Assembly: GCA_963835625.1 (NCBI GenBank)
Contig: CAWIGO010000012.1
Location: 28,895-92,894, forward strand
Length of the DNA stretch: 64,000 nucleotides
Direction of reading: 5' to 3'
DNA from: an uncultured Verrucomicrobiae bacterium
Lineage (GTDB): Bacteria; Verrucomicrobiota; Verrucomicrobiia; Limisphaerales; UBA11358
Within the stretch, counting starts at the first letter, position 1. The number at the start of each line of letters is the position of its first letter. The notes under the pieces were generated by a model. That model was not told the origin of the DNA and did no database searches. It was given only the letters and a program-made list of their open reading frames with translations. Made by a program: the position numbers and the translations under genes. Shown here one piece after another: positions 1 to 57,257 of this stretch.

Positions 1-77
1 AGGCTGCTTCACCCCGCGATTAGGAATAAATAATATGGCCAGCGCCTGTGGCCAGCACAAGAAGTTTCGGCTCCTAT

Positions 78-4170: not shown

Positions 4171-4199
4171 AATCACGCGGCTCCGGGCGACTTTGAATC

Positions 4200-4412
4200 A
4201 TGCAACTCGTTACTATTTCCAGCGAACTGAACGCAACCGAAGCGCAGATGAAGCGCGCCCGGCTCGAAGCGGCTGGATTCCACGCCGTCGTCATGAACGA
4301 AGCTTCTTCCTTTTGGATGGGCACCGCCATCGCCACCGGCGGCATCCTCGTTCAAGTGCCTGAATCCGAAGCCGCCGATGCCAGGGAATTTCTCAGCGCG
4401 CCCGTCGAATGA
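4200..4412 (+). CDS. Small DUF2007-like protein
   Basis: 70 aa ORF. Its stop overlaps the start of the next gene (ATGA). The sequence resembles the putative signal-transducing DUF2007 fold; this family call was made by eye only. Confidence 0.45.
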   Translation: MQLVTISSELNATEAQMKRARLEAAGFHAVVMNEASSFWMGTAIATGGILVQVPESEAADAREFLSAPVE

Positions 4413-5788
4413 CTCCTGAAAAATTAAAATCGCTCCGCCGGCTCAAAAAGATTCTGCCCTCTGGCGAAATCATCTTCGATCCGCGAACGCTTGAAAAATA
4501 TGCCGGGGACAAATGGTTTGCTTCGCATCAGCCGGACGCCGTCGCCCTGCCCCGCTCCACCCAATCCGTCTCTGCTCTGCTCCGCTTTGCCAATCGCCAC
4601 GGTATTCCCGTGACACCGCGCGGCGCGGGCCATGGCTACGTTGGCGGCTGCGTGCCCGTGCGCGGGGGCATCGTGCTCTCGCTGGAACGCATGAATCGCA
4701 TCAAGGAAATCAACGCCGCCGATTTCATTGCCGTCGTCCAGCCGGGCGTCAACACGCAAACGCTTCAGAAAATCGTTGAAAGGCGCGGCCTCTTTTACCC
4801 GCCCGACCCTGCCAGCCGCGCGGATAACTTCATCGGCGGCAACATTGCCACCAACGCCGGCGGCCCGCGCTGTTTGAAATATGGCGTCACCCGCGATTAT
4901 GTCCTCGGCCTTGAAGTCGTCCTCGCCGATGGAACTGTCGTCCGGCTCGGCGGTCGCACGCACAAAAACAAAACCGGTTTTGAGTTGCACCGGTTGTTCA
5001 TCGGCTCGGAAGGTTTGCTCGGCGTCGTCACTGAAGCCACAATCAAACTGATTCCGCTGCCGCCATTTCGCGCAACGCTTGCCGCCGGTTTCCATTCGAT
5101 GAAAGATGCGGTGCGCGCGCTTCAAGGAATTTTGGCCGCTGGATTTCTGCCCAGCGCGCTCGAATTGGCCGACGAATTCACGCTCGCTGCCGCCGCCGAA
5201 TACACAAAAAACAATCGTCTTGGAATTTGCCGCGCGCATCTGATTGTTGAACTCGACGGCCAGAAAAATTCCGTGCGCAGCGAATTGCCCGCCGTCGAGC
5301 GCGTGATTCGCAGGCATCAACCGCGATTCGTCGAACGTGGATGGGGCGATATCGAGTGCGAAAAAATCTGGCAAATCCGCCGCGAATTTTCCGCCGCGCT
5401 CAAAGACACTGGCCTTACAAAACTCAACGAGGACATCGTCGTGCCACGCGGAAAACTTGAAGCGCTTTTCAAATTCACGGCGAAGTTGCAAAAGAAACAC
5501 GATCTGCCGATTGCCTGTTTCGGTCATGCCGGCGACGGCAATATCCACACCAATGTAATGGTGGATTATACACAGCCCGGTGCCAAACACCGCGCCGAAG
5601 CCGCGCTGGATGAACTCTTTGCTCAAATTATCGCCTGGGGTGGTGCCATCAGTGGCGAACACGGCGTCGGCCTTGCCAAAAAACGCTGGTGGCCGCTGGC
5701 GGTTTCAAAGGAAGTTCGCGAACTCCATCGTGCTGTAAAGCACGCGCTCGACCCGAAAGGCATTTTGAATCCGGGCAAGTTTGTTTGA
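4409..5788 (+). CDS. FAD-binding oxidoreductase, GlcD / D-lactate dehydrogenase family
   Basis: 459 aa with an FAD_binding_4-type N-terminus (PRGAGHGYVGG) and a C-terminal GGAISGEHGVGLAK motif typical of FAD-linked oxidases. Confidence 0.85.
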   Translation: MTPEKLKSLRRLKKILPSGEIIFDPRTLEKYAGDKWFASHQPDAVALPRSTQSVSALLRFANRHGIPVTPRGAGHGYVGGCVPVRGGIVLSLERMNRIKEINAADFIAVVQPGVNTQTLQKIVERRGLFYPPDPASRADNFIGGNIATNAGGPRCLKYGVTRDYVLGLEVVLADGTVVRLGGRTHKNKTGFELHRLFIGSEGLLGVVTEATIKLIPLPPFRATLAAGFHSMKDAVRALQGILAAGFLPSALELADEFTLAAAAEYTKNNRLGICRAHLIVELDGQKNSVRSELPAVERVIRRHQPRFVERGWGDIECEKIWQIRREFSAALKDTGLTKLNEDIVVPRGKLEALFKFTAKLQKKHDLPIACFGHAGDGNIHTNVMVDYTQPGAKHRAEAALDELFAQIIAWGGAISGEHGVGLAKKRWWPLAVSKEVRELHRAVKHALDPKGILNPGKFV

Positions 5789-6920: not shown

Positions 6921-7128
6921 GCCTTGACTAAAGCAGAAATTGGGCGTCAAATAAACCGGATTCAGCAAATGAAAATCATTGGAACAACTTGCAGCCTTTG
7001 TCCGACAATAAAATTTAGCAATTCACAGGCGAACTATTTGTGGGTGAAAGGCTTTTGCAGAATCGAAATCAAAACGATGAAAAAGGATAGGCTGCAAACA
7101 ACGCCCCCTACTCACTGTTAGGTCATTT

Positions 7129-7638
7129 ATGTTCTACGACGACGAACCAGAATCATATCACGACGTTGCCTTGATTTGTTTGAACGGGCATGTGGTTAAC
7201 GATAGTTCTCGCACAAGCCCACAATTCAACGCGAAGCATTGCGATAAGTGTGGAGAGCCTACCATTGACACATGCCCAGCTTGTAAGAAGCCCATCAAGG
7301 GGGATTACAAGTCTCCGGGTGTTTTGGTGCTTGGCATGGGACAATCGCCCGCACCGAGTTTTTGTCAGGAGTGTGGCAAGTCGTTTCCTTGGACTGAGCG
7401 GCGGCTCGCCGCTGCCAAAGAGTTGGCAGACGAGTTAGATGGTTTGACGGATGATGACAAATTGAAGTTGCGGGGAGCCCTCGACGACCTAGTTAAGGAG
7501 GGGCCGAAAGTTGAGCCTGCAAAGTTGCGATTCAAGCAGATTATGAAAAAGGTTAGTCGAGAAGGCTACGATATGATGAAGTCGGTAGTCACTGATCTTG
7601 TCAGTGAGTCCGTTCGTAAGGCAATTTATGGTTCGTGA
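7129..7638 (+). CDS. Cassette ORF: double zinc-ribbon protein (possibly DUF2321-like)
   Basis: 169 aa with C..H, CDKC, CPAC and CQEC pairs, then a charged helical C-terminus. The ATG lies 5 nt after GTTAGGT. Confidence 0.6.
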   Translation: MFYDDEPESYHDVALICLNGHVVNDSSRTSPQFNAKHCDKCGEPTIDTCPACKKPIKGDYKSPGVLVLGMGQSPAPSFCQECGKSFPWTERRLAAAKELADELDGLTDDDKLKLRGALDDLVKEGPKVEPAKLRFKQIMKKVSREGYDMMKSVVTDLVSESVRKAIYGS

Positions 7639-7644
7639 GCAATG

Positions 7645-7774
7645 GCCTAACAAATCGCTGCAGGCAACTCCGATAAATCGCGAGCAGGCGCGGGCTGGCG
7701 TACAGTCAGCCTGCCCCGAAAGCTTTCGCGGTTGACATCACACATCAGGCGTGGCTCAGTTCTCGTCGCTAGGC
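7645..7774 (+). repeat. attC-like site 1A
   Basis: R'' GCCTAAC at 7645-7651 and L'' TCGCTGCAGGCAAC. L' is GCGTGGCTCAGTTCTCGTC. R' is the degenerate GCTAGGC at 7768-7774. The internal core is homologous to the element at 53889. Confidence 0.6.
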
Positions 7775-7786
7775 AGCATTACATTT

Positions 7787-8041
7787 ATGACCACACCAAC
7801 ACCAGTATCACCCACACCTAAGTCCAAACTCCTGCCGATTGGCATTTTATTTATCGTAGTTGGTTTACTTGGACGACAACCACTCGCCAAAGTAGTCGTG
7901 GCTATGCAGCCCAGCCTACTGCGGGGGATTTTATATGTGATCGCCACCGATGGTCTCACGTTATTATTTTTTGCAGGCGTGACCTGTGCTTTGCTTGGAT
8001 GGTTGAGAAACAGGAAGGCAAAACGACCTCCGAAAAGCTGA
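7787..8041 (+). CDS. Cassette ORF: small 2-TM membrane protein
   Basis: ORF 7751..8041 trimmed to the ATG at 7787, which is outside the attC. It has two hydrophobic helices and a basic tail. Confidence 0.5.
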   Translation: MTTPTPVSPTPKSKLLPIGILFIVVGLLGRQPLAKVVVAMQPSLLRGILYVIATDGLTLLFFAGVTCALLGWLRNRKAKRPPKS

Positions 8042-8063
8042 TATGGATGGCACACGCCTGCTG

Positions 8064-8197
8064 CTTAACAAGTCGCCGGAGCTAATCACCGTTGGCACGG
8101 TCAGTTCCGCTTTCGCGGTTCGCGTCGCGAGTCGGCGGTGGCTCTCATCTTCGCTCTTGGCGAGCTACGCTGAGGCAGTCAGCTTTCCACGTTAGGC
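8064..8197 (+). repeat. attC-like site 1B
   Basis: R'' GCTTAAC at 8064-8070 followed by AAGTCGCCGGAGCTAAT. R' GTTAGGC at 8191-8197. It lies between two ORFs. Confidence 0.55.
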
Positions 8198-8210
8198 CAC
8201 GGAGCGCGCT

Positions 8211-8504
8211 ATGAGATATTCGTTGCCCATATCACCAAGTTATCGCAGCCCGATTTTTGAGGCGGTTGCCCTTCAGGTGATTCTCGGCATTCTGAGTCTG
8301 CTGATTCTCGACGGTGGCACGACAGCACGCATTTGCGGCATCGCGTTGGTTGCTTTTTGGGGCGGAGCGACAGTTCTGATTTGGCGGCGACCACAATCAC
8401 CAACCAAGATAGACATAGAGTTGATTCGGTTCGGTTACTTGCCACTTGCCGTGCTGGCGTTCTTTTTGGTTCACTTCATTTGGACTTTGAGAGGTGTTGA
8501 GTGA
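8211..8504 (+). CDS. Cassette ORF: small 3-TM membrane protein
   Basis: 97 aa with a GGAG Shine-Dalgarno sequence (the ribosome-binding GGAG-type motif) 8 nt upstream of the ATG, immediately after R'. Confidence 0.55.
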   Translation: MRYSLPISPSYRSPIFEAVALQVILGILSLLILDGGTTARICGIALVAFWGGATVLIWRRPQSPTKIDIELIRFGYLPLAVLAFFLVHFIWTLRGVE

Positions 8505-8511
8505 AGACGTG

Positions 8512-8610
8512 GTCTAACAAATCGCTGCAGGCAACGCGGGGTGGCGTCTCCAGTTCCGCTATCGCGGAGGTCATCATCCGCTCCGCGTGCCTGAGCTCTG
8601 GACGTTAGGC
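8512..8610 (+). repeat. attC-like site 1C (best preserved)
   Basis: R'' GTCTAAC at 8512-8518 and R' GTTAGGC at 8604-8610. The arms pair, leaving unpaired bases in the L box. Confidence 0.7.
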
Positions 8611-8613
8611 GGC

Positions 8614-9057
8614 ATGACACCACGCTGGATACATATAGCTTTCGGGCTTGTTTGGCTTTTCACGGCATTGAGTTTTGGATTTCTCGCCCAAGACGCATAC
8701 AAAGCTGAATCAACCAGTCTGCTAAAGATTGGTGGACAGGTTCCAGAACATTTAATCGCATTCAACGATTTAGATATTGGAAAGGCGTTCAACATCATTT
8801 TAATGGTAAACAACAAGAATGTGAGATTGTTGGAAGCTTCCATACGGCAGTCAGCGACTCTTAATTTCCGACTTAATTTGCTTTCGTTTTTCATGGCCAT
8901 TATTGGACTTGCGGCGCAGACAGGTCAGTATTTGCACGAGCAGCGCAAGCACACCAGGCGGAAGAGCTATGCAGCCCACCATAAGAGCAGCAGTGGGGTG
9001 CTTGATACGAAGCTCCAAGAGGGAGATACAAAGCATGACAATCCCAATGCCGCCTAA
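8614..9057 (+). CDS. Cassette ORF: hypothetical membrane protein (C-terminal part doubtful)
   Basis: ORF 8587..9057 trimmed to the ATG at 8614, 3 nt after R'. It has a TM helix at the N-terminus. The tail overlaps a plausible convergent minus-strand ORF (8851..9036). Confidence 0.4.
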   Translation: MTPRWIHIAFGLVWLFTALSFGFLAQDAYKAESTSLLKIGGQVPEHLIAFNDLDIGKAFNIILMVNNKNVRLLEASIRQSATLNFRLNLLSFFMAIIGLAAQTGQYLHEQRKHTRRKSYAAHHKSSSGVLDTKLQEGDTKHDNPNAA

Positions 9058-9094
9058 CACCTAGACAGGCCGCAAATTTCTCATCCCCGACAAA

Positions 9095-9579: not shown

Positions 9580-10098
9580 TTACTTCTTCCCGGCTTTGGC
9601 TTCTGCGGGCTTTTTCTCCGCCGGTTTGGCTTCTGCGGGTTTCGTTTCTTCGGCGGGTTCGGCTTCGGTTGGAGCCGGAACCTCGAACGCGTAATCCACC
9701 CACTCCAAAATGGCGCGTTGCGCGGCGTCGCCCTGGCGCTGTTCCATCCTGATGATGCGCGTGTAACCGCCGTTGCGTTCCTTGAACGCGGGCGCGATTT
9801 CCGCAAAAAGAATGCGCACAACGTCTTCCTCATCGCGCCACTTGCGGCGCTCGTCCTTGGTAAGCTGGACCGTTGAGCCGCGCGTGCGCAAACGCGCGGC
9901 GACGAGGCGGCGCGCCTGAATCGTATTACGCTTGCCGAGCGTGACCATTTTTTCCGCAACGGGACGCACGGCTTTCGCCTTCGCGAGCGTCGTGGTCACG
10001 CGCTTGTGTTTGATGAGGCTGCAAACGAGATTCGCCAGCATCGCATTGCGATGCTCGGATGTCCGGCCCAGTTTGGCCGTTCGCTTCAAATGTCGCAT
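9580..10098 (-). CDS. rplQ: 50S ribosomal protein L17 with Ala/Lys/Pro/Glu-rich C-terminal tail
   Basis: MRHLKRTAKLGRTSEHRNAML is the canonical L17 start. It carries a roughly 45 aa AEAKPAEKK-type extension. Confidence 0.95.
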   Translation of the reverse strand: MRHLKRTAKLGRTSEHRNAMLANLVCSLIKHKRVTTTLAKAKAVRPVAEKMVTLGKRNTIQARRLVAARLRTRGSTVQLTKDERRKWRDEEDVVRILFAEIAPAFKERNGGYTRIIRMEQRQGDAAQRAILEWVDYAFEVPAPTEAEPAEETKPAEAKPAEKKPAEAKAGKK

Positions 10099-10106
10099 AA
10101 ACCGCC

Positions 10107-11144
10107 TTAATTATTCTCCGGATTTTCAACCGGCGCCGGCGCTTCCAGCAGACCCGGTTCGAAGTTCATGCCCAAATGCATCTCGACTTCGTTTTGTTTG
10201 CCAAGCTGATCAAGCTTGTCCTTGATTTCGTTGAGCGACTTTTTGCCGAAGTTGCGATACTTGAGCATTTCCTGCTCGGTCTTCATCGCAAGCTGGCCGA
10301 CGGTGGTAATGTTCGCATTGTTCAGGCAGTTTGCCGCGCGGACACTCAACTCGATTTCGTTGACGCTCATATTGAGGAGCTTCTTGATCTTCGATTTCTC
10401 CTCGTCCTGCTTGTCGGCTGCCTCCTCGAATTCAATCGCGTTCTTGTCGTAACCAACGAACACATCGAGGTGATGCTGCAAAATCGCCGAAGCCTGCGTG
10501 AGCGCGTCATCGGGGGAAAGGCGTCCATCCGTCCAGATTTCCAAAATCAGGCGGTCGTAATCCGTGCGGTTGCCGACGCGCGCGGCTTCGACGGAATAAC
10601 GCACACGCGTGACCGGCGAAAACAACGAGTCAATCGCAATGACGCCAATGGGCTGGCCCGGCTTTTTGTTTTCGTCGCCCGGACAAAAACCGCGGCCAAT
10701 CTTGAGTTCCAACTCCATCTCGAATTTTTTCTTTTTGTCGAGCGTGCAAATGATCTGGTCGGGATTGACCAATTCAACATTTTGATTGAGCTGGATGTCG
10801 GCAGCGGTCACCGGACCTTCCTTGTTCACCGACAGCAAAAGCATTTGCGGATCGCGTGTGTGCGCTTTGAATTTGATTTTTTTCAAATTCAATACGATGT
10901 CGGTCACGTCCTCGACCACCCCGTCAATGGTGGTGAACTCGTGCATCGCACCATCCACCTTCACCGAAGTGATGGCCGCGCCTTCCAGCGACGACAACAA
11001 CACGCGGCGCAGCGAGTTGCCGATGGTGTGACTGTAACCGGTTTCAAACGGGTCGGCGATGAATTTCGCGTAGGTGGCGGTGGCGGTTGCTTCGTCTTTT
11101 TGCAACCGTTTGGGCATTTCGAAACGTCCAAGTCTGACTGGCAT
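10107..11144 (-). CDS. rpoA: DNA-directed RNA polymerase subunit alpha
   Basis: 345 aa with GNSLRRVLLSS, a dimerisation domain and a C-terminal alpha-CTD (VRAANCLNNANITTVGQL). Confidence 0.97.
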   Translation of the reverse strand: MPVRLGRFEMPKRLQKDEATATATYAKFIADPFETGYSHTIGNSLRRVLLSSLEGAAITSVKVDGAMHEFTTIDGVVEDVTDIVLNLKKIKFKAHTRDPQMLLLSVNKEGPVTAADIQLNQNVELVNPDQIICTLDKKKKFEMELELKIGRGFCPGDENKKPGQPIGVIAIDSLFSPVTRVRYSVEAARVGNRTDYDRLILEIWTDGRLSPDDALTQASAILQHHLDVFVGYDKNAIEFEEAADKQDEEKSKIKKLLNMSVNEIELSVRAANCLNNANITTVGQLAMKTEQEMLKYRNFGKKSLNEIKDKLDQLGKQNEVEMHLGMNFEPGLLEAPAPVENPENN

Positions 11145-11235
11145 ATTTTCCTTTCAACAATTTTAATCTGGCTTTCCCGGCGGTTTATTCCCGCAGGCCG
11201 GTCAAGCCCGTATAATTGTTTTTGTTTTTACTTTT

Positions 11236-11844
11236 TTAACGGGAATAAAATTCCACAACGGCCTGTTCGTTGGCAATCGGCTGAATTTCGTCACGCGTCG
11301 GAATCCGCATGACCGTGCCTTTGAATCCCTCTTTGTTCAGCGACAGCCAATCCGGCACAGCGCGGCTCATGGCGATTTCCAGATTCTTCGTGGCCAATTG
11401 ACGCGACACGTTTGAATTTTTCACTTCAATCACGTCGTTCACCTTGAGGCTGTATGACGGAATGTTCACCTTGCGACCATTGACCACGATATGGCCGTGC
11501 GAGGTCATCTGACGCGCGGCAGCCCGGGTGTTCGCAAACCCGAGGTGATAAACCACATTGTCGAGGCGCGTCTCCAAAATTTGCAGCATCTGTTCGCCAG
11601 TAACGCCACGGCGCTTGAGCGCCTTTTCATAAACACCGCGAAATTGGCGTTCCATCAGGCCGTAGTAGTAACGGAGCTTTTGCTTTTCAATCAGGCCGAG
11701 GCCGTAATCGGTGTGCTTGTGGCGCGACTTCGGGCCGTGAACGCCCGGACCGTAGTTGCGGCGCTCAAGGTATTTCGTCGGGCCGAAAATCGGAATGCCG
11801 AACCGGCGACTGATGCGAACGCGAGGACCTGTGTAACGAGCCAT
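11236..11844 (-). CDS. rpsD: 30S ribosomal protein S4
   Basis: MARYTGPRVRISRRFG... is the canonical S4 sequence. Confidence 0.95.
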   Translation of the reverse strand: MARYTGPRVRISRRFGIPIFGPTKYLERRNYGPGVHGPKSRHKHTDYGLGLIEKQKLRYYYGLMERQFRGVYEKALKRRGVTGEQMLQILETRLDNVVYHLGFANTRAAARQMTSHGHIVVNGRKVNIPSYSLKVNDVIEVKNSNVSRQLATKNLEIAMSRAVPDWLSLNKEGFKGTVMRIPTRDEIQPIANEQAVVEFYSR

Positions 11845-19283: not shown

Positions 19284-19375
19284 ATTTTGAAATCCGTTAC
19301 ATCGTTACATCGTTAAATTGTCAAATCGGCTCAAACGATTCACGATTCAACGATTTAACACTTCAACGCTCTGCT

Positions 19376-25567: not shown

Positions 25568-25624
25568 CTGTGCCTTTGTCCGATTCAACGGTTCAACGAT
25601 TTAACGATTCAACGCTTGATTAAA

Positions 25625-26479
25625 TTACTTTTTGGCTGGCGCTGCAGCAGCAGCGGCAGGCTTGGGTTCGGCCTTCGCAGCAGCGGCAGGCTTGGGTTCG
25701 GCCTTCGCAGCAGCGGCAGGCTTGGGTTCGGCCTTCGCGGCAGCGCCGCCCTTCCTCTTCATCGGCGCGGTGCTGACCGGCGGTTTCCAGCCCTTGGGCC
25801 GTTTCTTGGATTCGCGGATGATGACATAATCGCCTTCCGCGCCGGGAATCGCGCCTTTGATGAGCAAAAGATTATCGGCCTCGCGCACTTGAATGACTTC
25901 AAGATTCTGCGTCGTGCGCTGAACCTGCCCCATGTGGCCGGGCATTTTCAGACCGCGCATGACCGTGCCGGGAAACAAACGCTGGCCAATGGCGCCGATG
26001 CGCCGATGCCAGCCTTTCGCGCCGTGCGTTGAATCGCCGCCGCGAAAACTGTGACGGGCAACCACACCTTCAAATCCGCGCCCTTTCGTGACACCAATCG
26101 CATCCACAAAATCGCCGGGCGCGAAAAGGGTCGGGCCGACAATGTCGCCGGGTTTTACTTCCTTGGAAAAATTGCGAAATTCCTTGATCTTCGCCACCCC
26201 CGCCAGCGCGGTCTTGTCGCCCTTCTCACGCGCCTTTTCCGCCGCCGCCTTGTCGAGCGCGCCGTGCTTGACGAGGTGTCCCAGCGCGGGCTTCGCAATG
26301 CGCTGCGGCTTCTGACTGCCAAAGCCGAGCTGCACGGCATTGTAGCCATCCTTCCCGGCCTGGGTTTTGACCTGAAGCACGCGATTGGGACCCGCGAGCA
26401 CGACCGTGACCGGGACGACGCCGCGTGAATCATACACGCGCGTGCTTCCGAGTTTTTTCCCTAAAAGTCCGAGGGGCAT
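25625..26479 (-). CDS. rplC: 50S ribosomal protein L3 with repeat-containing C-terminal extension
   Basis: MPLGLLGKKLGSTRVYD... is the L3 core. The C-terminal tail is AAAKAEPKPA x3 followed by AAAAPAKK. Confidence 0.93.
   Translation of the reverse strand: MPLGLLGKKLGSTRVYDSRGVVPVTVVLAGPNRVLQVKTQAGKDGYNAVQLGFGSQKPQRIAKPALGHLVKHGALDKAAAEKAREKGDKTALAGVAKIKEFRNFSKEVKPGDIVGPTLFAPGDFVDAIGVTKGRGFEGVVARHSFRGGDSTHGAKGWHRRIGAIGQRLFPGTVMRGLKMPGHMGQVQRTTQNLEVIQVREADNLLLIKGAIPGAEGDYVIIRESKKRPKGWKPPVSTAPMKRKGGAAAKAEPKPAAAAKAEPKPAAAAKAEPKPAAAAAAPAKK
25647..25736. repeat. Perfect 3 x 30-bp tandem repeat inside the rplC 3' end
   Basis: GCAGCAGCGGCAGGCTTGGGTTCGGCCTTC occurs three times head-to-tail. It is in-frame and encodes (K)AEPKPAAAA(K) units. 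Confidence 0.95.
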
Positions 26480-26519
26480 AAATTCGTCGAATCGTTAAAT
26501 CGTTAAATCGTTACAGCGA

Positions 26520-26828
26520 TTAAATTTTGATGGTGATGTCCACGCCGGCGGGCAAATTGAGCTTTTTCAATTCGTCCACGGTCTTGGCGGTCGGGTCGAG
26601 AATGTCAATCAGCCGCTTGTGGGTGCGTTGCTCGAAAGTTTCCTGCGACTTTTTGTCCGCGTGCGGCGAGCGTTGCACGGTAAACCGCTCAATGCGGGTG
26701 GGAAGCGGGATTGGCCCGGCGACGCGCGCGCCGGTGCGTTTGACGGTGTCCGCAATTTCACGCGCGGACTGGTCTATGACGCGATGGTCATAGGCCTTGA
26801 GACGGATTCGAATGTTTTGTCCAGCCAT
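26520..26828 (-). CDS. rpsJ: 30S ribosomal protein S10
   Basis: [21 protein letters not shown]... is canonical S10. Confidence 0.96.
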
Positions 26829-36709: not shown

Positions 36710-37183
36710 TTACCAGCGGAAATGGGCAAAAGCCTTGTTCGCTTGCGCCATCTTGTGGACGTCGTCGCGTTTGCGAATGGCGTTGCCTTGTCCCTGATAC
36801 GCTTCCAGAATTTCCGCCGCGAGCGCGTCGCGCATGGGCATGCCCTTGCGCGCGTCCGCAAAATCCACGATCCACCGCAAGGCCAGCGAAGCCTGCCGGT
36901 CGGACGGCACCTCCAGCGGCACCTGATACGTGGCGCCGCCGACGCGGCGCGGCTTGGTCTCGATGCGCGGCTTGGCGTTGTCCACCGCGCGCTGCAAAAT
37001 TTCCACCGGATTGCTCGCCGGGTTTTTTTGCGAAATGCTGTCGAACGCGCCATAGACAATCCGCTGCGCCGTGCTTTTCTTGCCGCACGTCATCACGGTG
37101 TTGACCAGCCGCGAAACCAAAGCGCTTTGAAACTTTCCGTCTTTGGCAATCTTCCGTCTGGTGGCTTGTCGTCTGCGGGACAT
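36710..37183 (-). CDS. rpsG: 30S ribosomal protein S7
   Basis: 157 aa. ...GKKSTAQRIVYGAF... is canonical S7. Confidence 0.95.
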   Translation of the reverse strand: MSRRRQATRRKIAKDGKFQSALVSRLVNTVMTCGKKSTAQRIVYGAFDSISQKNPASNPVEILQRAVDNAKPRIETKPRRVGGATYQVPLEVPSDRQASLALRWIVDFADARKGMPMRDALAAEILEAYQGQGNAIRKRDDVHKMAQANKAFAHFRW

Positions 37184-37199
37184 GGGATTCGTTAAATCG

Positions 37200-37658
37200 T
37201 TAAATCGTTGAACCGTGAATTGGGTTAGGCGGCGGGTGCTTCCGCCGGAGCCGCGCTGCGGCCGCGGGGGCGGCGGGTTTGGAACCCGGTTTCGGACGTT
37301 TCACGCCGTATTTCGAGCGGCTGACCCTGCGTTTTTCCACACCGGCGGCGTCGAGCCGGCCGCGAACGATGTGATAACGCACACCGGGCAAATCCTTCAC
37401 GCGTCCGCCGCGCACCATCACAATCGAGTGTTCCTGCAAATTATGGCCTTCGTCCGGGATATAGGCGATGACCTCGTAGCCGTTCGTCAGGCGAACCTTG
37501 GCAACCTTGCGCATGGCCGAGTTCGGCTTCTTGGGCGTGCGCGTCATGACCTGGATGCACACACCGCGGCGAAACGGCGAACCTCCCAAGGCTGGCGACT
37601 TGGACTTGTATTTTACTTTACGCCGGCCCTTGTGGACCAATTGATTGATAGTCGGCAT
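37200..37658 (-). CDS. rpsL: 30S ribosomal protein S12 with about 25 aa C-terminal extension
   Basis: [13 protein letters not shown]...[11 protein letters not shown] is canonical S12. It extends past the usual ...YGVKRPK end. Confidence 0.95.
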
Positions 37659-50968: not shown

Positions 50969-51044
<76 letters not shown>

Positions 51045-51168
51045 GCATTCAAATCATTAGTCCGACCCGACATGCAAAACGACAAAAAACCATTTCCCCT
51101 CGTTCTTTTCTTTCGAAAACCCGAGGGGCTAAACGGCTTTTTGACTTTTTACGGCTCTGACGGACTGC

Positions 51169-51197
51169 AAACTATGCAATACACCCAACCCTGTCAA
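51169..51197 (-). promoter_or_regulatory. Putative sigma70 promoter for tRNA-Thr/tuf
   Basis: Minus strand reads TTGACA (51197-51192), a 17-nt spacer, then TAGTTT (51174-51169), about 125 nt upstream of tRNA-Thr. Confidence 0.4.
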
Positions 51198-51215
51198 CAG
51201 CTTTTTTAGCCCATT

Positions 51216-51983
51216 TTACTTGCTGATTCCCCGTTCACTTGCCCGCACAAATTGAATCAAATATCGAATCTCGGGCAACGGCGGCAATTTCTTTTCAACC
51301 TTCACCACCGCGTTGGAAACGGCAAGTCCTTCGCGAAACAGAATCTTGTAAGCCTGCCGCAATGCAATCTGCGCCTTTTCAGAAATACCGTTCCGTTCCA
51401 TGCCGATTTTGTTGATGGTTCGTGTTTCCGCAGGGTTGCCATCAGCCATCATGAATGGCGGCACGTCCTGCACGACTTTTGAGCAACCGCCTATCATCGC
51501 CATTTTGCCGATGCGACAAAACTGATGAATTGCCGCCAATCCACCAATCACCGCGTAATCCTCCACCACGACATGCCCCGCAAGTGTGGCGACATTTGAC
51601 ATGATAACGTGGTCGCCGAGCGTCACATTGTGAGCGATGTGGCAATAAGCAAGGATGTGATTGTGCGATCCAACGCGCGTGACCTCGCCATCACCGGTCG
51701 CGCTGTGAATGGTGACGTATTCGCGGAATGTGTTGTGGTCGCCGATTTCCGTGCGCGTGACACCACCGTTCCATTTCAAGTCCTGCGTCTTCAGCCCGAT
51801 GCTCGCGAACGGGAAAATTTCATTCTCCTTTCCCAATTTCGTGTGTCCGTCAATGACAACGTGCGAATACAGTTTGCAACCGCTCCCGAGCACGACGTAT
51901 TCGCCAATGACACAGTAAGGACCGATTCCGCAGCCGGAACCGATTTTGGCTTTTGAATGAATGATGGCCGTGGGATGAATCAT
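51216..51983 (-). CDS. lpxA: Acyl-ACP--UDP-N-acetylglucosamine O-acyltransferase
   Basis: 255 aa with left-handed beta-helix hexapeptide repeats (MIHPTAIIHSKAKIG...) and an LpxA C-terminal helical domain. Confidence 0.92.
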   Translation of the reverse strand: MIHPTAIIHSKAKIGSGCGIGPYCVIGEYVVLGSGCKLYSHVVIDGHTKLGKENEIFPFASIGLKTQDLKWNGGVTRTEIGDHNTFREYVTIHSATGDGEVTRVGSHNHILAYCHIAHNVTLGDHVIMSNVATLAGHVVVEDYAVIGGLAAIHQFCRIGKMAMIGGCSKVVQDVPPFMMADGNPAETRTINKIGMERNGISEKAQIALRQAYKILFREGLAVSNAVVKVEKKLPPLPEIRYLIQFVRASERGISK

Positions 51984-52007
51984 GGGAATTTCGCAATTTG
52001 AAATTCG

Positions 52008-53414
52008 TCATTCGCCACGCAACATGAAAGTGACTTCCGCTTCGCTCACCATTTCGCCGCCGACCTTGCAAATTCCTTTGGCCTTGCAGATTTTGCCGCG
52101 CGTTTTCATGAGCTCAACTTCAATGACCAGTATGTCACCGGGCACAACCAGTTTGCGCCATTTGACATTTTCAGCGGACATGAAGTAAGCGAGCTGCCGT
52201 CCGGTTTCGGCGTGTTTCATCATCAAAAGGCCGGCAACCTGCGCGATGGCTTCGAGTTGCAAAACGCCCGGCATGATCGGATGCCCCGGGAAATGTCCCT
52301 GAAAATACCATTCGTTCATCGTGACGTTTTTGACGCCGATGATTTTGTTGCCGTCCATTTTCAGAATCCGGTCCACCATCAAAAACGGCGGGCGATGCGG
52401 CAGCAGTTTCATGATTTGCTCAATGTCCATCGCGACGTCTTCGGAAATCATCGATTCAGGCGCGGCAACTTTCGCCGGCGGCGGCGCGAACGTTTGCGCG
52501 GCGCGCAATGGCTTTTGCATCTGTGCGATGATTTGCCGGACAAATTCGCAATTGGCCGCGTGACTCGGTTTCACTGCAACCAGGTGCCCGCGAATCGGCC
52601 GTCCGAGCAGCGACAAATCGCCGACGATGTCGAGCATCTTGTGCCGCACGAACTCCTCGGGATACCGCATCGGCTCGGTCGTCAGCACCGCGTCGTCGCG
52701 AATGACAATGGCGTTCTCCAAACTGCCGCCCTTGATCAAATTATTTTTGATGAGGTGCTCGATTTCCTCGTAAAAACAAAACGTCCGCGCGTGCGCCAAT
52801 TCTTTTTCCCAGGTCTTCGGCGTGATTTCCGTGCTGTAAAATTGGGTGAACCGGCCTTTTTTGTCGGCACTCGTGCAGGTGATTCTGAAACCGTCGCCGG
52901 GAAACAGCGTCATTACCGTTTCGCCCGCTTCCAGTTCAATCGGCTCGGTGGGCGTGAAGGACTCGCGCTTTTCGGCCTGCGGCGCGATGCCCGCGGCCTG
53001 AATGATTTTGCAAAACTCGCGCGAACTGCCGTCGGCAATCGGGGGCTCGCTCCCGTCCAATTCAATGATGGCATTATCAATTCCATAACCCGCCAGCGTC
53101 GCGAGCACGTGCTCGACGGTGTGGATTTTCACGTTGCCCTTGACGAGCGTCGTTGAACGGTTTGTCTCGACGACATTTTCCACGCGCGCCTCGATTTCGG
53201 GTTTGCCGTCGAGGTCAACGCGGCGGAAACGAACGCCGCTGTTGGCGGGCGCGGGCAGAATCGTCATGTTCACCCGGTTGCCGCTGTGCAGGCCGACGCC
53301 GGAAAAACTCGCGGCGCGATTGAGAGTTTGCTGATTCAGCACGGACGGATTAAACAAAACGCAGGCGCGGTTGGCAAGGTTGCACTTGCTGCTCCAGCAG
53401 TGCTCTTTGAACAC
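52008..53414 (-). CDS. lpxC: Bifunctional UDP-3-O-acyl-GlcNAc deacetylase / 3-hydroxyacyl-ACP dehydratase
   Basis: LpxC N-terminal part (QQTLNRAASFSGVGLHSGNRV..., HTVEHVLA) fused to a FabZ hot-dog domain (LPHRPPFLMVD...GHFPGHPIMPGV). The GTG start is uncertain. Confidence 0.9.
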   Translation of the reverse strand: MFKEHCWSSKCNLANRACVLFNPSVLNQQTLNRAASFSGVGLHSGNRVNMTILPAPANSGVRFRRVDLDGKPEIEARVENVVETNRSTTLVKGNVKIHTVEHVLATLAGYGIDNAIIELDGSEPPIADGSSREFCKIIQAAGIAPQAEKRESFTPTEPIELEAGETVMTLFPGDGFRITCTSADKKGRFTQFYSTEITPKTWEKELAHARTFCFYEEIEHLIKNNLIKGGSLENAIVIRDDAVLTTEPMRYPEEFVRHKMLDIVGDLSLLGRPIRGHLVAVKPSHAANCEFVRQIIAQMQKPLRAAQTFAPPPAKVAAPESMISEDVAMDIEQIMKLLPHRPPFLMVDRILKMDGNKIIGVKNVTMNEWYFQGHFPGHPIMPGVLQLEAIAQVAGLLMMKHAETGRQLAYFMSAENVKWRKLVVPGDILVIEVELMKTRGKICKAKGICKVGGEMVSEAEVTFMLRGE

Positions 53415-53554
53415 CGTTTCGGTGGGTCACAGACCGCAGAAACAACCAAAATTCCCATTGAAAATAATTCTTACAGGAATAAAGTCCCAACCATGAAACT
53501 AAAGAGGCTGCATACAGCGCGCTGCCTGCTCACTGTTAGGCCATAAGACGCATT

Positions 53555-53881
53555 ATGAAAACCGCGCACACATTGATATTGATTTCGATCATGATTCTTG
53601 CTGGCTGCACAACCGCTCCAAAAACCAATCGTTTAAGCCTTGGCATCACCAAGCAGCAGGTTATTGCCGTCATGGGGGCACCAAACAGCACGGCAGCGCA
53701 TATTGCAGGCGTTGAGATACTCCGTTACCGACTCTCGGCCACGAGCCACGATGTTTTTCACCACCGCACTGAAGAATATTTTGTGAGGTTGGTTGGCGGC
53801 AAAGTGGATAGTTACGGAAAGATGGGAGATTTTGATTCCGAGAAAGATTTGACCAAAAAATTAAACAGCGGAAACAGATGA
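53555..53881 (+). CDS. Cassette ORF: small lipoprotein (BamE/SmpA-OmlA-like by eye)
   Basis: 108 aa with the lipobox ILAGC. LSLGITKQQVIAVMGAPNS resembles the SmpA/OmlA fold opening. Confidence 0.6.
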   Translation: MKTAHTLILISIMILAGCTTAPKTNRLSLGITKQQVIAVMGAPNSTAAHIAGVEILRYRLSATSHDVFHHRTEEYFVRLVGGKVDSYGKMGDFDSEKDLTKKLNSGNR

Positions 53882-53888
53882 CACAGTG

Positions 53889-54032
53889 GCCTAACAAGTC
53901 GCCGGAGCCAACTCCGATAAATCGCGAGCGGGCGCGGGATGGCGCAAGCAGCCTGCCCCGAAAGCTTTCGGGGTTCCGGAAGTCGCGGTTCACGTCATTT
54001 GATCCCGCGTGCCTGAGCTCTGGACGTTCGGG
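53889..54032 (+). repeat. attC-like site 2A
   Basis: R'' GCCTAAC at 53889-53895. L' is GCGTGCCTGAGCTCTGGAC. R' is the degenerate GTTCGGG at 54026-54032. The internal core shares 21- and 22-nt identical blocks with site 1A. Confidence 0.6.
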
Positions 54033-54044
54033 CGGAGGTGAAAG

Positions 54045-55544
54045 ATGAGCAATGCACCAGATCCAAGACCGTTAAGCCCTATTTCTGCGTTCGCCTGGCT
54101 CGCGCTGCAGAATGACACTGCCTTTCTTGCATCGCTTGCCATCATTCCGCTGGCGATTGACCTTGCCACGCGCTTCATCTGGAGGATTAACCCGCCCCAC
54201 GGTTGGTTCCTTGTTGGTGCCACATTGGTTCTCCTCAGCGTGATGTCGGTAATTGTCGTGGGGAAACGCGTCCCGTTGCTGTTTGGTCTCGCCGCCCTTT
54301 ACCTGGGGGCGATGCTCCTGTTCGAGTCATGGCAGGAGGTTAGGATCGTTTCAGCCCTCGCAGAATTTGCATTTCCCTCAAACGAGAGTATGAACGCGTT
54401 CAGGATTCTCCTACCATTAACAATGCTCTTATCTTTCTCCGTCGCGGTTAGCGCCGTCGTGGCCATCGTCCGTTGGGATACGGGATGCGTCCTTCTCCTA
54501 TGGACACTTCCGCCGCTCGTGTTCCTTCGCTACGCGCTCTGGTTTGCCATGCGCGACGCACCAATTACCGTCATCGGCGAGTATGCTCTCGGCACATCGC
54601 TCTTCCTTTCTCTTTACAACACCCTTTTCTTGGCAGACTACGACAAGAACACAGACCCGGCCTATGTCCCCGGAACTTCATACATGCGCTCTTCACGTCG
54701 CTTGTGCCGATGTTGGCGTGGCCTTATTCTCGTTCTCTATCTCTGGTTTGCGCTACTCGCCGTCTTCGCCGCAAACACATACGTGGGGGACATCTTCTGC
54801 CAAAGCAGCGCCCGCCGAGTGCCTCAGTTCTTCTACGCTGTCACGCGCCTTCTTTCTCCTTTGCTCAGAGCATCTGTGAATCTCGTACCGATCGTTTTTG
54901 TTCTGTGTCTACTTGTCGGCATTTTGAGGATGATTCAGAGAGGGGCTGAAGCAGCCCGAACCAGAAGCTCCAGACTACCTCGCGTTCGGCCAAGAAAGGA
55001 GTATCAAATGTGGAACATCTTTCGATCAAAGATCAGTGATGCAGACCGGGATGCCGCGACGCGCTACCTACGCGCACTCTGCAAACTCGTCGCCGTTTTA
55101 GATAAGGACGCCGAAGCCTTCAATGACGTGTTTAATCGTTTCGACAGCAGTGATTCGTCAAACGAGGTCAATGGCTACCAAGTCAAGGCCGCCGCCGAAA
55201 AGTCGCTACAAGTAGCTTCTGAATTATCCTTACGTCATACAACCATAGGGAACGTCCCCGCTGTAGCCAACAAGACTTTTCAAGCATGGACGGAAGCATT
55301 CGAAGAGTACTCGATGTTCACCGGGCACCGCATGCTCAACGCGGGTTTCCTTGCACGGCACGGACGCGCTCCATTGGATCAGACACTGCACATACAACAT
55401 TACCATAAGTTCGGAATTGCTCTTTCAAAGGCTCAACGACAATTGAAAAGACTCGCATCTCATTTGGGTGTAAGCGACCAGCAGATGGCCGAATGGTTGT
55501 TCGGGGAAGGAGCGACGGAAACACAACCGCACAATCAAAGTTGA
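54045..55544 (+). CDS. Cassette ORF: large polytopic membrane protein with soluble C-terminal domain (hypothetical)
   Basis: 499 aa with a GGAGG Shine-Dalgarno sequence 6 nt upstream. About 8 TM helices are followed by a roughly 180 aa helical domain. An internal AAGGAG + ATG lies at 55008. Confidence 0.6.
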   Translation: MSNAPDPRPLSPISAFAWLALQNDTAFLASLAIIPLAIDLATRFIWRINPPHGWFLVGATLVLLSVMSVIVVGKRVPLLFGLAALYLGAMLLFESWQEVRIVSALAEFAFPSNESMNAFRILLPLTMLLSFSVAVSAVVAIVRWDTGCVLLLWTLPPLVFLRYALWFAMRDAPITVIGEYALGTSLFLSLYNTLFLADYDKNTDPAYVPGTSYMRSSRRLCRCWRGLILVLYLWFALLAVFAANTYVGDIFCQSSARRVPQFFYAVTRLLSPLLRASVNLVPIVFVLCLLVGILRMIQRGAEAARTRSSRLPRVRPRKEYQMWNIFRSKISDADRDAATRYLRALCKLVAVLDKDAEAFNDVFNRFDSSDSSNEVNGYQVKAAAEKSLQVASELSLRHTTIGNVPAVANKTFQAWTEAFEEYSMFTGHRMLNAGFLARHGRAPLDQTLHIQHYHKFGIALSKAQRQLKRLASHLGVSDQQMAEWLFGEGATETQPHNQS

Positions 55545-55550
55545 GACATG

Positions 55551-55671
55551 GTCGAAGGCGCTGCAGGCAACAGCCGCCGCGCCGGGCAGTTGACCGGTTT
55601 ATGAAACTCGAACATCATCATTGAAGGCCATGTCCCGCTCAGCGGCTGTGCCTGAGCTTTGGACGTTAGGC
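55551..55671 (+). repeat. attC-like site 2B
   Basis: Degenerate R'' GTCGAAG followed by the exact L'' GCGCTGCAGGCAAC. L' is GTGCCTGAGCTTTGGAC. R' GTTAGGC at 55665-55671. Confidence 0.55.
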
Positions 55672-55770
55672 ATCGCGAGCGGGCTTGCCACCGCCCCTTC
55701 CGCCTCCATCGGATTTCGGCGCGACAGGCTACGGTTCAATTTCACTTCTAATACCAATTCCCAGTGTAAA

Positions 55771-55835
55771 GGTAGGGACGTTTCGCCGAAACGTCCGCAC
55801 AAATGAACGGACGCATGAGGCCATGCGTCCCTACC
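55771..55835. repeat. REP-like element GGTAGGG-hairpin-spacer-hairpin-CCCTACC
   Basis: GGTAGGGACGTTTC-GCC-GAAACGTCC ... GGACGCATG-AGGC-CATGCGTCCCTACC forms two 9-bp hairpins framed by inverted GGTAGGG/CCCTACC. Confidence 0.7.
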
Positions 55836-55880
55836 CAATATTTTAAACCGTTGCACACCCGAATAATCCAACTGAAACCG

Positions 55881-55901
55881 ATAGGGTCGCGCGTCCCTAC
55901 C
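55881..55901. repeat. Short REP-like palindrome (ATAGGGTCGCGCGTCCCTACC)
   Basis: Imperfect palindrome of the same GGTAGGG family, about 45 bp from the previous element. Confidence 0.5.
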
Positions 55902-55924: not shown

Positions 55925-57145
55925 CTAAATTATATCCGCCGCCAGCACGCGAAGCATTTCCTCCAATGAGGTTTCTCCGGCAACAACGCGTTGAAGTCCG
56001 TTTTGCAAGAGTGTTCTCATGCCTTGCTGGATGGCAATTTCCTCCAGCGCGGACGTGGGCATTTTTTTCAAGATCGCCTCGCGGAAGGGTTCATCCACGA
56101 CCAGCAATTCCGTCACGGGCATGCGACCGGAGAAACCGGTGTTGTGGCACCCGTCGCAACCTCTGCTGCGACAGAATTGCGCCTCTGGCAGCAATGCTTC
56201 AGGAACAATTTTGAGCTGGCTTGGTTCCGGATCATACGATCGTAAACAATCCTGACAATTGCGCCGTATCAGCCGCATTCCCATCACGCCAAGAACGCTC
56301 GACGCCAGCATGAACGGCTCGATCTCCATGTTGATCAACCGTGTGAACGCGCCCGCCGAAACGCCGGAGTGAATTGTGCTGAGGACCAAATGTCCCGTCA
56401 GGCCGGCCTGCACCGCGATGGCGGCGGTCTCCGGGTCGCGAATCTCGCCCACCATGACCACCTGCGGGTCCTGCCGCAGGATGCTCCGAAGGGCGACGGC
56501 GTAAGTGAACTCCTGCGCAGGATTGATCTGTGTCTGGCTGACCATCGGCAGATTGAATTCCACCGGGTCCTCCACCGTGCTAATGCTGATGCTCGTGCCA
56601 TCGCGCTGCATGATGTGGCAAAGCGACGAATACATCGTGCTCGTCTTGCCGGAACCAACCGGTCCGGTGAACAGCATCAGACCGCTCGGCCGTTTGAGCA
56701 GGCGCAACAGCCCTTGCTGCGTCGAATCGTCAAAACCGAGCGTGTTCAAATCAAACCGCCGGTCACGCGGGTCAAAAAGCCGCACAACAATTTTTTCGCC
56801 GCGCGTCGTGGGAAAAATCGAGATGCGCAATTGCACGTCGTCCAATTCCGGCCCGCCCATCGCCGTGCCATCCTGCGGTATTCCTGACTGGTAGGTCACC
56901 AGGTTGGACATGACTTTGAAGCGCGCGGAAATCTTGTCCAACAACTCCAGCTGCAGGTTCGCCACTTCGAGCAGCACGCCGTTGACGCGCGCGCGCACCG
57001 CGATGGCGTCTTCCCACGGCTCAATGTGCAGATCGCTCGCGCTGAGTTTGATGGCGTCCTGCACCATGCAGTTGACCAGCACGATGACCTCAGGCCCTTG
57101 TGAGGCGACGCTTTCGGATTGGAGATAATCAACAGTGTAACCCAT
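55925..57145 (-). CDS. GspE/PilB-family secretion ATPase (short form, orphan)
   Basis: Trimmed to the ATG at 57145. It has Walker A GPVGSGKT, Asp/His boxes and a tetracysteine CQDC...CDGC. No other T2SS or T4P genes are nearby. Confidence 0.85.
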   Translation of the reverse strand: MGYTVDYLQSESVASQGPEVIVLVNCMVQDAIKLSASDLHIEPWEDAIAVRARVNGVLLEVANLQLELLDKISARFKVMSNLVTYQSGIPQDGTAMGGPELDDVQLRISIFPTTRGEKIVVRLFDPRDRRFDLNTLGFDDSTQQGLLRLLKRPSGLMLFTGPVGSGKTSTMYSSLCHIMQRDGTSISISTVEDPVEFNLPMVSQTQINPAQEFTYAVALRSILRQDPQVVMVGEIRDPETAAIAVQAGLTGHLVLSTIHSGVSAGAFTRLINMEIEPFMLASSVLGVMGMRLIRRNCQDCLRSYDPEPSQLKIVPEALLPEAQFCRSRGCDGCHNTGFSGRMPVTELLVVDEPFREAILKKMPTSALEEIAIQQGMRTLLQNGLQRVVAGETSLEEMLRVLAADII

Positions 57146-57257
57146 GTCGCATGATGCGTGTTTGCCAGAGAATAAAAGTGCTGCCTTTGAATTACAAGGA
57201 CTGGATTCAGTTTTACTTGCCGCTTGCACCGTCTGTTTTCGCATTTAACCTGTCAAA

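Follow-up and report, generated by a model that had tools for sequence, protein, structure and literature searches.

Clusters of attC sites lacking an integron integrase (CALINs) are a recognized class of elements, and loss of the integrase gene intI is among the origins proposed for them (Cury et al. 2016, PMC4889954). We studied a short array of repeat elements and open reading frames (ORFs) next to an lpxC-fabZ fusion gene in an uncultured Verrucomicrobiae bacterium (assembly GCA_963835625.1, contig CAWIGO010000012.1). The array occupies positions 53493-55671 of a 64,000-nucleotide (nt) stretch of this contig, which we call the window. Positions given without a locus name refer to the window, and names such as L124 denote loci of other genomes. 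We conclude, with a probability of roughly 85%, that the cluster is the cassette array of a chromosomal integron from which a verrucomicrobial lineage has lost intI while retaining attI, i.e., a CALIN with an attI.

Several described systems resemble this locus. The chromosomal integron at ilvD in Xanthomonas exhibits progressive inactivation of intI and CALINs at conserved loci (Gillings 2005, as cited in 10.1101/2025.06.18.660453). In the account given by the citing work, that integron also lies at a conserved core-gene locus, lineages differ in having an intact, a disrupted or a deleted intI, and its arrays outlast the loss. By that same account, a shared intI lesion in Xanthomonas usually means identical arrays, whereas here the strains with the intI-less junction each have different cassettes. 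The two cases also differ in phylum, attC family and locus (here lpxC-fabZ/gspE). The sedentary chromosomal integrons with homogeneous attC sites, such as the Vibrio cholerae repeats, are similar in that relatives of our bacterium have long arrays of a lineage-specific family of highly similar attC sites, here of about 99 nt. By contrast, the window's arrays are short, degenerate and lack intI.

CALINs, locus-bound decay of integrons, fused cassettes, upstream ORFs in attI and insertion at genomic attG sites have all been described already. The array is therefore not a new type of system, but is a well-supported further CALIN, in Verrucomicrobiota. It differs from the CALINs surveyed previously (PMC4889954) in that its attI is demonstrably retained, as judged by homology, while most CALINs are not assessable in this respect, with attI sites being undescribed for most integrons. 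In addition, orthologous loci show that the integrase-less state is old, although the content still varies. What goes beyond the ordinary is the continued turnover of cassettes at an attI without an integrase, an upstream ORF within this attI and a conserved site at the end of the arrays. The ORF, which is reminiscent of ORF-11, and the terminal site may be new.

The locus thus provides a base-resolved example of a CALIN as an integron platform without intI but with attI, whose cassettes were exchanged afterwards. This bears on the origin of CALINs and on a possible lasting functional link to integrases elsewhere in the genome. The work also documents a large and little-studied integron family in Verrucomicrobiota from soil, peat and freshwater.

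The repeat elements are attC sites

The array has the simple grammar of integron gene cassettes, whose ORFs usually lack a promoter: one ORF is followed by its own attC site, in a single orientation throughout. On the + strand, a GTTAGGC core (53535-53541) is separated by 13 nt from the ORF of cassette 1, which encodes 108 amino acids (aa) with an ILAGC lipobox (53555-53881). After 7 nt comes the attC of cassette 1, a repeat element of 144 nt (53889-54032), then 12 nt containing GGAGG, a 499-aa ORF (54045-55544), 6 nt and the last attC, a repeat element of 121 nt (55551-55671). A previous reading of the sequence alone (the sequence-only reading) had proposed this layout, and all of its coordinates and spacers are correct to the base.

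Sites of the attC type are imperfect palindromes with R'' (RYYYAAC) and R' (GTTRRRY) boxes and L'' and L' boxes, which form a hairpin with an unpaired spacer and extrahelical bases. At gathering thresholds, Rfam detects three tRNAs in the window and no attC family. Because Rfam has no matching attC family, we built our own covariance model. A scan for the 5' motif over one genome per species yielded more than 118 stretches, nearly all of them in Verrucomicrobiota metagenome-assembled genomes (Limisphaerales, 'subdivision 3', Pedosphaera), where 8 kb contain as many as 13 copies. The extracted attC copies comprise 140 distinct sequences, mostly 99 nt long. Our model, R1, is based on an alignment of 30 non-redundant attC sites from other genomes, and excludes the sequence of the window.

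The R1 consensus has 19 base pairs, 8 of which exhibit compensatory changes, and a GC/CG swap in the inner stem occurs in 10-14 of the 30 sequences. Its fold is the textbook attC hairpin, comprising an R box (CCTAAC/GTTAGG), a spacer that is unpaired, an L box in which bases bulge out, and a variable loop. The L box occurs in two covarying types, GAGCCA/TGGCTC and CAGGCA/TGCCTG. When run over the window unfiltered, R1 finds five matches, all on the + strand. Two are the elements of the array, at precisely the positions given above: 55551-55671 (42.0 bits, E 1.3e-10) and 53889-54032 (32.3 bits, E 1.4e-7). The others are at 8512-8610 (86.8 bits), 8063-8161 (49.2 bits) and 7645-7774 (33.9 bits), and the sixth-best match in the window has an E-value of 0.079. 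Folding of single sequences was uninformative for the attC of cassette 1 and gave a weak signal for the last attC because the boxes are degenerate, as the family alignment showed. The attC of cassette 1 folds no better than shuffles (z about 0), and the bottom strand of the last attC has a z-score of -1.7 with pairing of its L box.

In the loci that we fetched from Verrucomicrobiota genomes, arrays of this attC family begin beside a divergently oriented tyrosine recombinase. The recombinases adjoining the arrays in L095, L013 and L087 score 418-465 bits on TIGR02249, the 'integron integrase' model, whose cut-off is 265. Searches with tblastn place intI beside arrays in about 18 loci. The repeat elements are genuine attC sites, and the ORFs between them are genuine integron cassettes.

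The three further R1 matches belong to a sister array with the same architecture (7076-9074, + strand). It consists of an attI at 7076-7122, the attC sites at 7645-7774, 8063-8161 and 8512-8610, and a terminal site at 9052-9074. The grammar that had been proposed to be common to both clusters holds, with the same attC family and the same opening site. Within the window, the conserved ends of the repeat elements are confined to the lpxC-side cluster and to 7.6-8.6 kb. The 3' motif GCCTGAGCTYTGGACGTT has 3 copies and the 5' motif TAACAARTCGCYGSAGSYAA has 4, versus 0.11 expected for each. The sequence CTCACTGTTAGG opens both clusters and is found nowhere else in the window.

The attC 5' motif was also observed in contigs with titles from other phyla. 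Seven are titled Bifidobacteriaceae (L004, L016, L020, L022, L062, L073, L081), and the others are assigned to Sulfotelmatobacter (L059), Saccharimonadales (L070) and Dormiibacterota (L054). We confirmed full arrays with an integrase in L062 and L073. These contigs probably reflect mis-binning or mislabelling of co-assembled genomes, and cross-phylum transfer of cassettes is less likely.

A predicted attI site opens the array

The left boundary of the array (53493-53541, + strand) is a predicted attI site. It consists of ATGAAA, a degenerate GATAGGCTGCA box (here AAGAGGCTGCA), about 25 nt and the GTTAGGC core. The prediction is based on homology, in that this site and the one at 7076-7122 both align with sequence located about 100 nt upstream of intI in L066, L071 and L075. 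The site at 53493-53541 is also orthologous to sites in L120-L126, L130 and L164. The consensus of the family is ATGAAA-N3-GATAGGC(T/C)(G/A)CA-N~25-(C)TGTTAGGC. Complete integrons have a CTGGAC-N10-GTCCAG palindrome and a TACAAT-like box 5' of attI, and the sequence upstream of the window's attI is recognisable only from about the -10-like box onward. Homology to L124 ends at 53541, the last base of GTTAGGC, as is the case for the classical attI crossover.

We did not find intI in the 64-kb window using tblastn with verrucomicrobial IntI (best E 4.8), in agreement with the sequence-only reading, and hence no integrase adjoins this attI as it would in a complete integron. CALINs are defined as at least two attC sites with intI absent nearby (4-10 kb). 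The array has two full attC sites and one remnant. The position taken by intI in a complete integron is filled by the lpxC-fabZ fusion gene (52008-53414, - strand; Pfam LpxC 1.6e-96, FabA 3.8e-35).

A site resembling a promoter, TTGAAA-16 nt-TAAAGT, points into the array (53458-53485, + strand) and matches the consensus at 9 of 12 positions. It emerged from a consensus scan whose matches are not enriched over shuffles, and the stretch is conserved in the orthologous loci L124, L130 and L164. It could be a cassette promoter that drives transcription through attI into the cassettes.

The attI family contains a small upstream ORF (uORF) of 14-21 codons, with the pattern MK[K/R/P]DR[L/P][Q/H]...C and a stop codon. 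The uORF ends at the TAG within the GTTAGG core, and the frame leading to this TAG is kept in 13 of 15 distinct attI sites, including variants with insertions of 21 nt and 9 nt. We observed the uORF in the attI sites of L035, L059, L064, L066, L071, L075, L120-L126 and L130, and it is intact in the sister array (7076-7120) and in L124. In the lpxC-side attI, the corresponding ORF (53493-53546, + strand, MKLKRLHTARCLLTVRP and a stop) is a frameshifted version of the family uORF. The frame is broken by a +2 nt shift, which moves the stop to 53544-53546.

This design is similar to ORF-11 of attI1 in class 1 integrons (Hanau-Bercot 2002, via PMC8876359). As ORF-11 is presented in that later source, both are short uORFs that span the crossover, and the likeness extends to a TAG stop at positions 3-5 of the GTTRRRY core, which is supplied by the first cassette. 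A stop supplied by the cassette core occurs in the family and in the 7.1-kb attI, but not in the attI at 53493, whose frame is broken. Compared with ORF-11 as it is described there, the uORF of our family is unrelated in sequence, has 14-21 codons and exhibits no obvious Shine-Dalgarno sequence.

Cassettes differ among strains at a shared junction

We compared the locus with its orthologs, based on 80 loci from a metagenome scan with LpxC-FabZ and on L120-L123, which were added from exact-protein look-ups. The usual order of core genes is lpxA, lpxC-fabZ, gspE / ccsA, hemA. The closest relative, L124, is 96.6% identical over 51000-53541, and its identity to the window resumes at 55888. In between, L124 has 747 nt with one unrelated cassette and a terminal site.

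At least six close relatives have the same junction of lpxC and attI, with a different first cassette in each. These include L130/L125 (92-96% nucleotide identity in the flanks), L120-L122 and L126 (about 94%) and L164 (79% LpxC-FabZ amino-acid identity). The attI is conserved at the locus across relatives with 79-97% LpxC-FabZ identity, and at least six different contents follow the orthologous attI, each starting exactly after GTTAGGC. The contigs of L120-L122 stop within the array, as is typical of population heterogeneity. The two outcomes named as refuting the sequence-only reading did not occur: the attC calls are positive, and the ORFs themselves are not conserved at the locus in relatives. 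The comparison of the lpxC-gspE junction revealed strain-specific cassettes after a common attI.

In the clade with this junction, intI is absent from the locus in the strains sampled. Given that the intI-less junction is shared while the cassettes differ, the junction arose once and the cassettes changed afterwards. The region from the GATAGGCTGCA box to GTTAGGC was inherited with the locus and not with the cassettes, which excludes a recent integration of the whole array. Because cassettes differ in each strain even though intI is absent, the platform appears to have continued to be served.

The data show the identity of the attC sites, the homology of attI, the absence of intI, a strain-specific content with a precise left breakpoint and the mobility of cassettes 1 and 2b, and we propose the remaining steps as a model. 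Cassettes, each consisting of an ORF and an attC hairpin of ~99-150 nt, would be captured by IntI through attI x attC recombination between the G and the TTAGGC of the core (53535-53541), and would probably be transcribed from a promoter just upstream of attI. The intI gene would have been lost at the locus, with the platform still being served, most probably in trans by the IntI of another integron. The observed turnover needs either an integrase acting in trans or arrays that were built elsewhere and imported by homologous recombination through the flanks.

Related loci exhibit other states of an integron in the same neighbourhood. A complete integron adjoins the 5' side of gspE in each of L127, L138, L141 and L043. 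In L183 (reverse complement, 3830-4860), intI lies directly beside lpxC-fabZ, is split by an inserted GIY-YIG-type ORF and is followed by attC sites. L123 and L203 have an attI, an array and a terminal site beside ccsA, and retain the palindrome that is proximal to intI in complete integrons. In these two loci, an AbiEii-family gene occupies the position of intI, directly 5' of the palindrome (L123 9383-9910; L203, reverse complement, 11108-11630). We considered the integrons of L127, L138, L141 and L043 as direct ancestors, but rejected this idea, as their attI type differs and their IntI are 50-65% identical; we claim only that they are in the same neighbourhood. Our claim is accordingly limited to a probable recurrent integron neighbourhood with integrase loss, rather than a single ancestral element.

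Some rearrangements were also observed. C-terminal fragments of intI are duplicated in L183, and L127 carries an extra fragment of this kind. The gspE gene is to the right of the array in the window's group and to the left in L127, L138, L141, L203 and L043, with the same orientation. Since the side differs between relatives, either the array or gspE was transposed relative to the other.

The cassettes

Cassette 1 encodes a lipoprotein that weakly resembles BamE (Pfam BamE E 0.0026, below the curated cut-off) and has 43 homologues. A copy with 94% identity is the last cassette of an array at an unrelated locus (L204), with an attC before it and a terminal site after it. Given this copy in another array, cassette 1 is a mobile cassette.

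The 499-aa ORF had been interpreted as a membrane protein. Its coordinates are correct, but our analysis shows that it is a fusion of two cassette ORFs. In a word-indexed search, its sole full-length database match is itself, and an exact-protein look-up found only a Logan contig of 1.6 kb. The two-part nature became visible only because we ran an exhaustive phmmer search, which split the ORF. Residues 27-306 match one protein of 849 aa, and residues about 320-495 match stand-alone proteins of 150-185 aa. The first part, the membrane protein of cassette 2a, corresponds to residues about 1-315 (+ strand). The second, cassette 2b, is an ORF of 177 aa (55009-55544, + strand) that starts at an internal ATG preceded by AAGGAG.

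Homologues of cassette 2b begin at the residue matching this ATG at 55009, and are themselves stand-alone cassettes. One of them (P0165, 54% identity) is flanked by GTTAGGC and an attC in L213. Another (P0166) has an attC immediately 5' and is part of an attC-bearing array (L215-L217). Cassette 1 and homologues of cassette 2b thus occur in other arrays, but we did not find a homologue of cassette 2a in any array.

Between cassettes 2a and 2b is a 25-nt remnant of an attC 3' end (L'-R'), AGCTCCAGACTACCTCGCGTTCGGC (54966-54990, + strand). The attC 3'-end pattern matches only this remnant and three of the five attC sites in the window, with 0 matches expected in shuffles. The 499-aa ORF is thus a read-through fusion of cassettes 2a and 2b across a nearly deleted attC. 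Fused gene cassettes, in which loss of an attC joins two cassette ORFs, are known (PMC4670013). As in those, the ORF reads through the attC remnant and the next cassette keeps its Shine-Dalgarno sequence and ATG; cassette 2a has its own Shine-Dalgarno sequence as well. Unlike in those, the fusion is in a chromosomal array without an integrase, in a non-clinical bacterium. In Pfam, the 499-aa ORF has no match, and no cassette protein scores above a curated cut-off. PADLOC yielded no defence-system match for any cassette protein.

Decay of the array

All recombination sites of the lpxC-side array deviate from the family consensus. The attI is about 82% identical to that of L124, compared with 96.6% in the flanks, and its GATAGG box is replaced by AAGAGG. 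The attC of cassette 1 is a long variant that joins a 5' half of type A to a 3' half of type B, such that two L-box pairs are non-canonical, and its R' box, GTTCGGG, is off-consensus. The last attC, a long type-B variant, has GTTAGGC as its R' box, but its R'' box is GTCGAAG rather than GYCTAAC, with a deletion of 3 nt. Finally, the right flank of the array (55672-55735, + strand) lacks the terminal site GCCTAAC-N5-GATAGGCTGCA, which is present in L124, L130, L125 and L164. This flank keeps only a downstream GACAGGCTAC box (55723-55732) that is common to L130.

Because these recombination sites are decaying, the three cassette genes are probably fixed. The array is thus probably frozen in this strain, with its cassette genes now being accessory genes rather than mobile ones. 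These genes are strain-specific and probably now immobilised; they encode a lipoprotein resembling BamE, a membrane protein that is an orphan, and a soluble protein of small size.

It is rather unlikely that the array is instead a fully active satellite platform in this strain, whose deviations are tolerated and into which a distant IntI still inserts cassettes, or from which it excises them. IntI enzymes do read structure more than sequence (PMC4889954, and established knowledge of attC), each close relative has different cassettes despite lacking intI at the locus, and the R' box and both L boxes of the last attC are intact. The damage, however, affects every site. The attI is less similar to that of L124 than the flanks are, and has a 2-nt insertion as well as the mutated GATAGG box. 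The L boxes of the first attC are unpaired, the next attC is cut to 25 nt and the R'' box of the last is destroyed.

The terminal site of the arrays

The terminal site, GCCTAA(C/T)-N5-GA(T/C)AGGC(T/C)GCA, is found at the distal end of at least 14 arrays, both complete and integrase-less. In addition to 9052-9074 in the window, it occurs in L124, L130, L125, L164, L123, L203, L057, L064, L071, L074, L075 and L204, and its spacer is 8 nt in L130/L125. The ORF that precedes the site varies among strains, while the site and its right flank are constant.

The GATAGGCTGCA box in this site is a direct repeat of the one in attI, and on the opposite strand the site corresponds to the attI simple site (GCNGCCTAYC-N5-GTTAGGC) in inverted form. 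When its R'' box and spacer are joined to attI, the result folds into an attC-like hairpin (z -1.7 to -4.95), which is partly so by construction. Classical exchange between attI and attC, or between two attC sites, does not predict a constant terminal site. We tried to derive the site from classical attI x attC products and from common-core (attL/attR) integration, but it remains unexplained by these. It may represent what was once the right half of attI, or else be functional itself.

Origin of the array

Several points weigh against our interpretation, or at least against parts of it. The candidate promoter is a mere consensus match. An IntI elsewhere in the genome is presumed, as our evidence covers the 64-kb window. 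Local turnover could be mimicked if strains replaced their arrays through homologous recombination in the flanking core genes. Recombination may still take place at degenerate sites, given that IntI tolerates much sequence variation. Moreover, the integrases in the more distant lpxC/gspE loci share only 50-65% identity with one another and are associated with other types of attI. For this reason, a single, vertically inherited integron at the locus is not established, and the lpxC/gspE neighbourhood could instead be a region of recurrent integration.

The sequence-only reading took the dispersed clusters as a sign that cassettes are frequently inserted at non-attI sites. We consider it very unlikely that the cassettes were inserted at ordinary genomic sites (attG-type, i.e., secondary GWT sites). 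IntI is known to insert cassettes at GWT sites genome-wide (10.1101/2022.09.11.507474), and two clusters within 64 kb without intI would suit such a process. However, attG sites are short GWT sites that are unrelated to attI or attC, whereas the insertion point here lies inside an attI homologue of ~49 nt, including the upstream box and the uORF, and so does not reflect secondary-site insertion. This attI is homologous to those near intI in L066, L071 and L075, both clusters in the window start with such a site, and the one studied here is conserved at the locus over the full range of relatives (79-97% LpxC-FabZ identity). The same lpxC/gspE neighbourhood has intI in L127, L138, L141 and L043, and an intI pseudogene in L183. 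Insertion at genomic sites is thus largely refuted. It was also overstated that dispersed clusters without integrases are unusual, since CALINs are common and there are often several per genome (PMC4889954; 10.1101/2025.06.18.660453).

Chromosomal rearrangement, by which a piece of a larger, intI-linked array would have been moved to this locus (a split integron), is a proposed origin of CALINs (PMC4889954). The varying position of gspE relative to the array indicates that rearrangements did occur in the region. Yet the cluster starts with an attI and not in mid-array, the lpxC-attI junction is identical in at least six relatives with different cassettes, and no insertion sequence or transposase was found near the array, such that this origin is highly improbable. 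Lastly, the idea that the repeats are terminators, or resemble repetitive extragenic palindromic (REP) sequences or miniature inverted-repeat transposable elements, and flank unrelated small genes could draw on two of the elements folding no better than shuffles and on the lack of an Rfam match, but it is refuted by the covarying structure, the R''/R' boxes (RYYYAAC/GTTRRRY), the strict co-orientation with ORFs and the proximity of the family to TIGR02249 integrases in many genomes.

The preferred interpretation, a CALIN that retains its attI, may apply to other loci. Platforms with an attI but no integrase seem common in the clade, because we found further attI sites of the same type with no integrase in the available upstream sequence. 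These are L019 1428-1465, L035 1253-1290 and 3035-3072, L064 3427-3464 and L116 1849-1886. We tentatively suggest that such modules are satellite platforms served by one distant IntI, and perhaps also represent an undescribed architecture, although we regard this as doubtful. If true, the architecture would comprise a compact attI with an ORF-11-like uORF and a conserved distal terminal site. The terminal site and attI would reconstitute an attC-like hairpin, as if the array had been inserted into a split attC-like site, and an additional recombination reaction at the array end would be implied. Regardless, the attC model, the attI consensus, the uORF and the terminal site can be used for annotation and for explaining assembly breaks at such loci.

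Other features of the locus

The core genes in the flanks of the array are lpxA, the lpxC-fabZ fusion, a gene for a GspE-type ATPase, ccsA and hemA. The gspE-like gene to the right of the array (55925-57244, - strand) matches Pfam T2SSE with an E-value of 5.1e-106. The rpoBC, tuf and ribosomal protein genes are also near the array. The composition profile of the window exhibits no GC anomaly.

Inverted repeats resembling REP sequences, GGTAGGGACG ... CGTCCCTACC, are located between the array and the gspE stop codon (55770-55900). Their number and sequence vary among the window, L124 and L130. An 8-nt unit, AATCGTTA / TCGTTAAA, and its complement form short tandem arrays at 19284-19370, 25580-25624, 26474-26527 and 37179-37224. 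These are in or near several of the gaps between larger ORFs of the core region.

A conserved motif occurs 5' of lpxC-fabZ (53301-53378, - strand), and in relatives it is also found 5' of gspE. Examples from relatives are L043 6440-6500, L123 about 10000-10060 and L127 (reverse complement) 11014-11092. In L127 and L043, the 5' region of lpxC seemed to be duplicated 5' of gspE, but this proved to be only the shared promoter-like motif. On the gene strand, the motif reads CTTGCCAA..GTTTTGT(T/C)TAATCC..TGCTCAATCAGCAG, and resembles a shared promoter or leader element.

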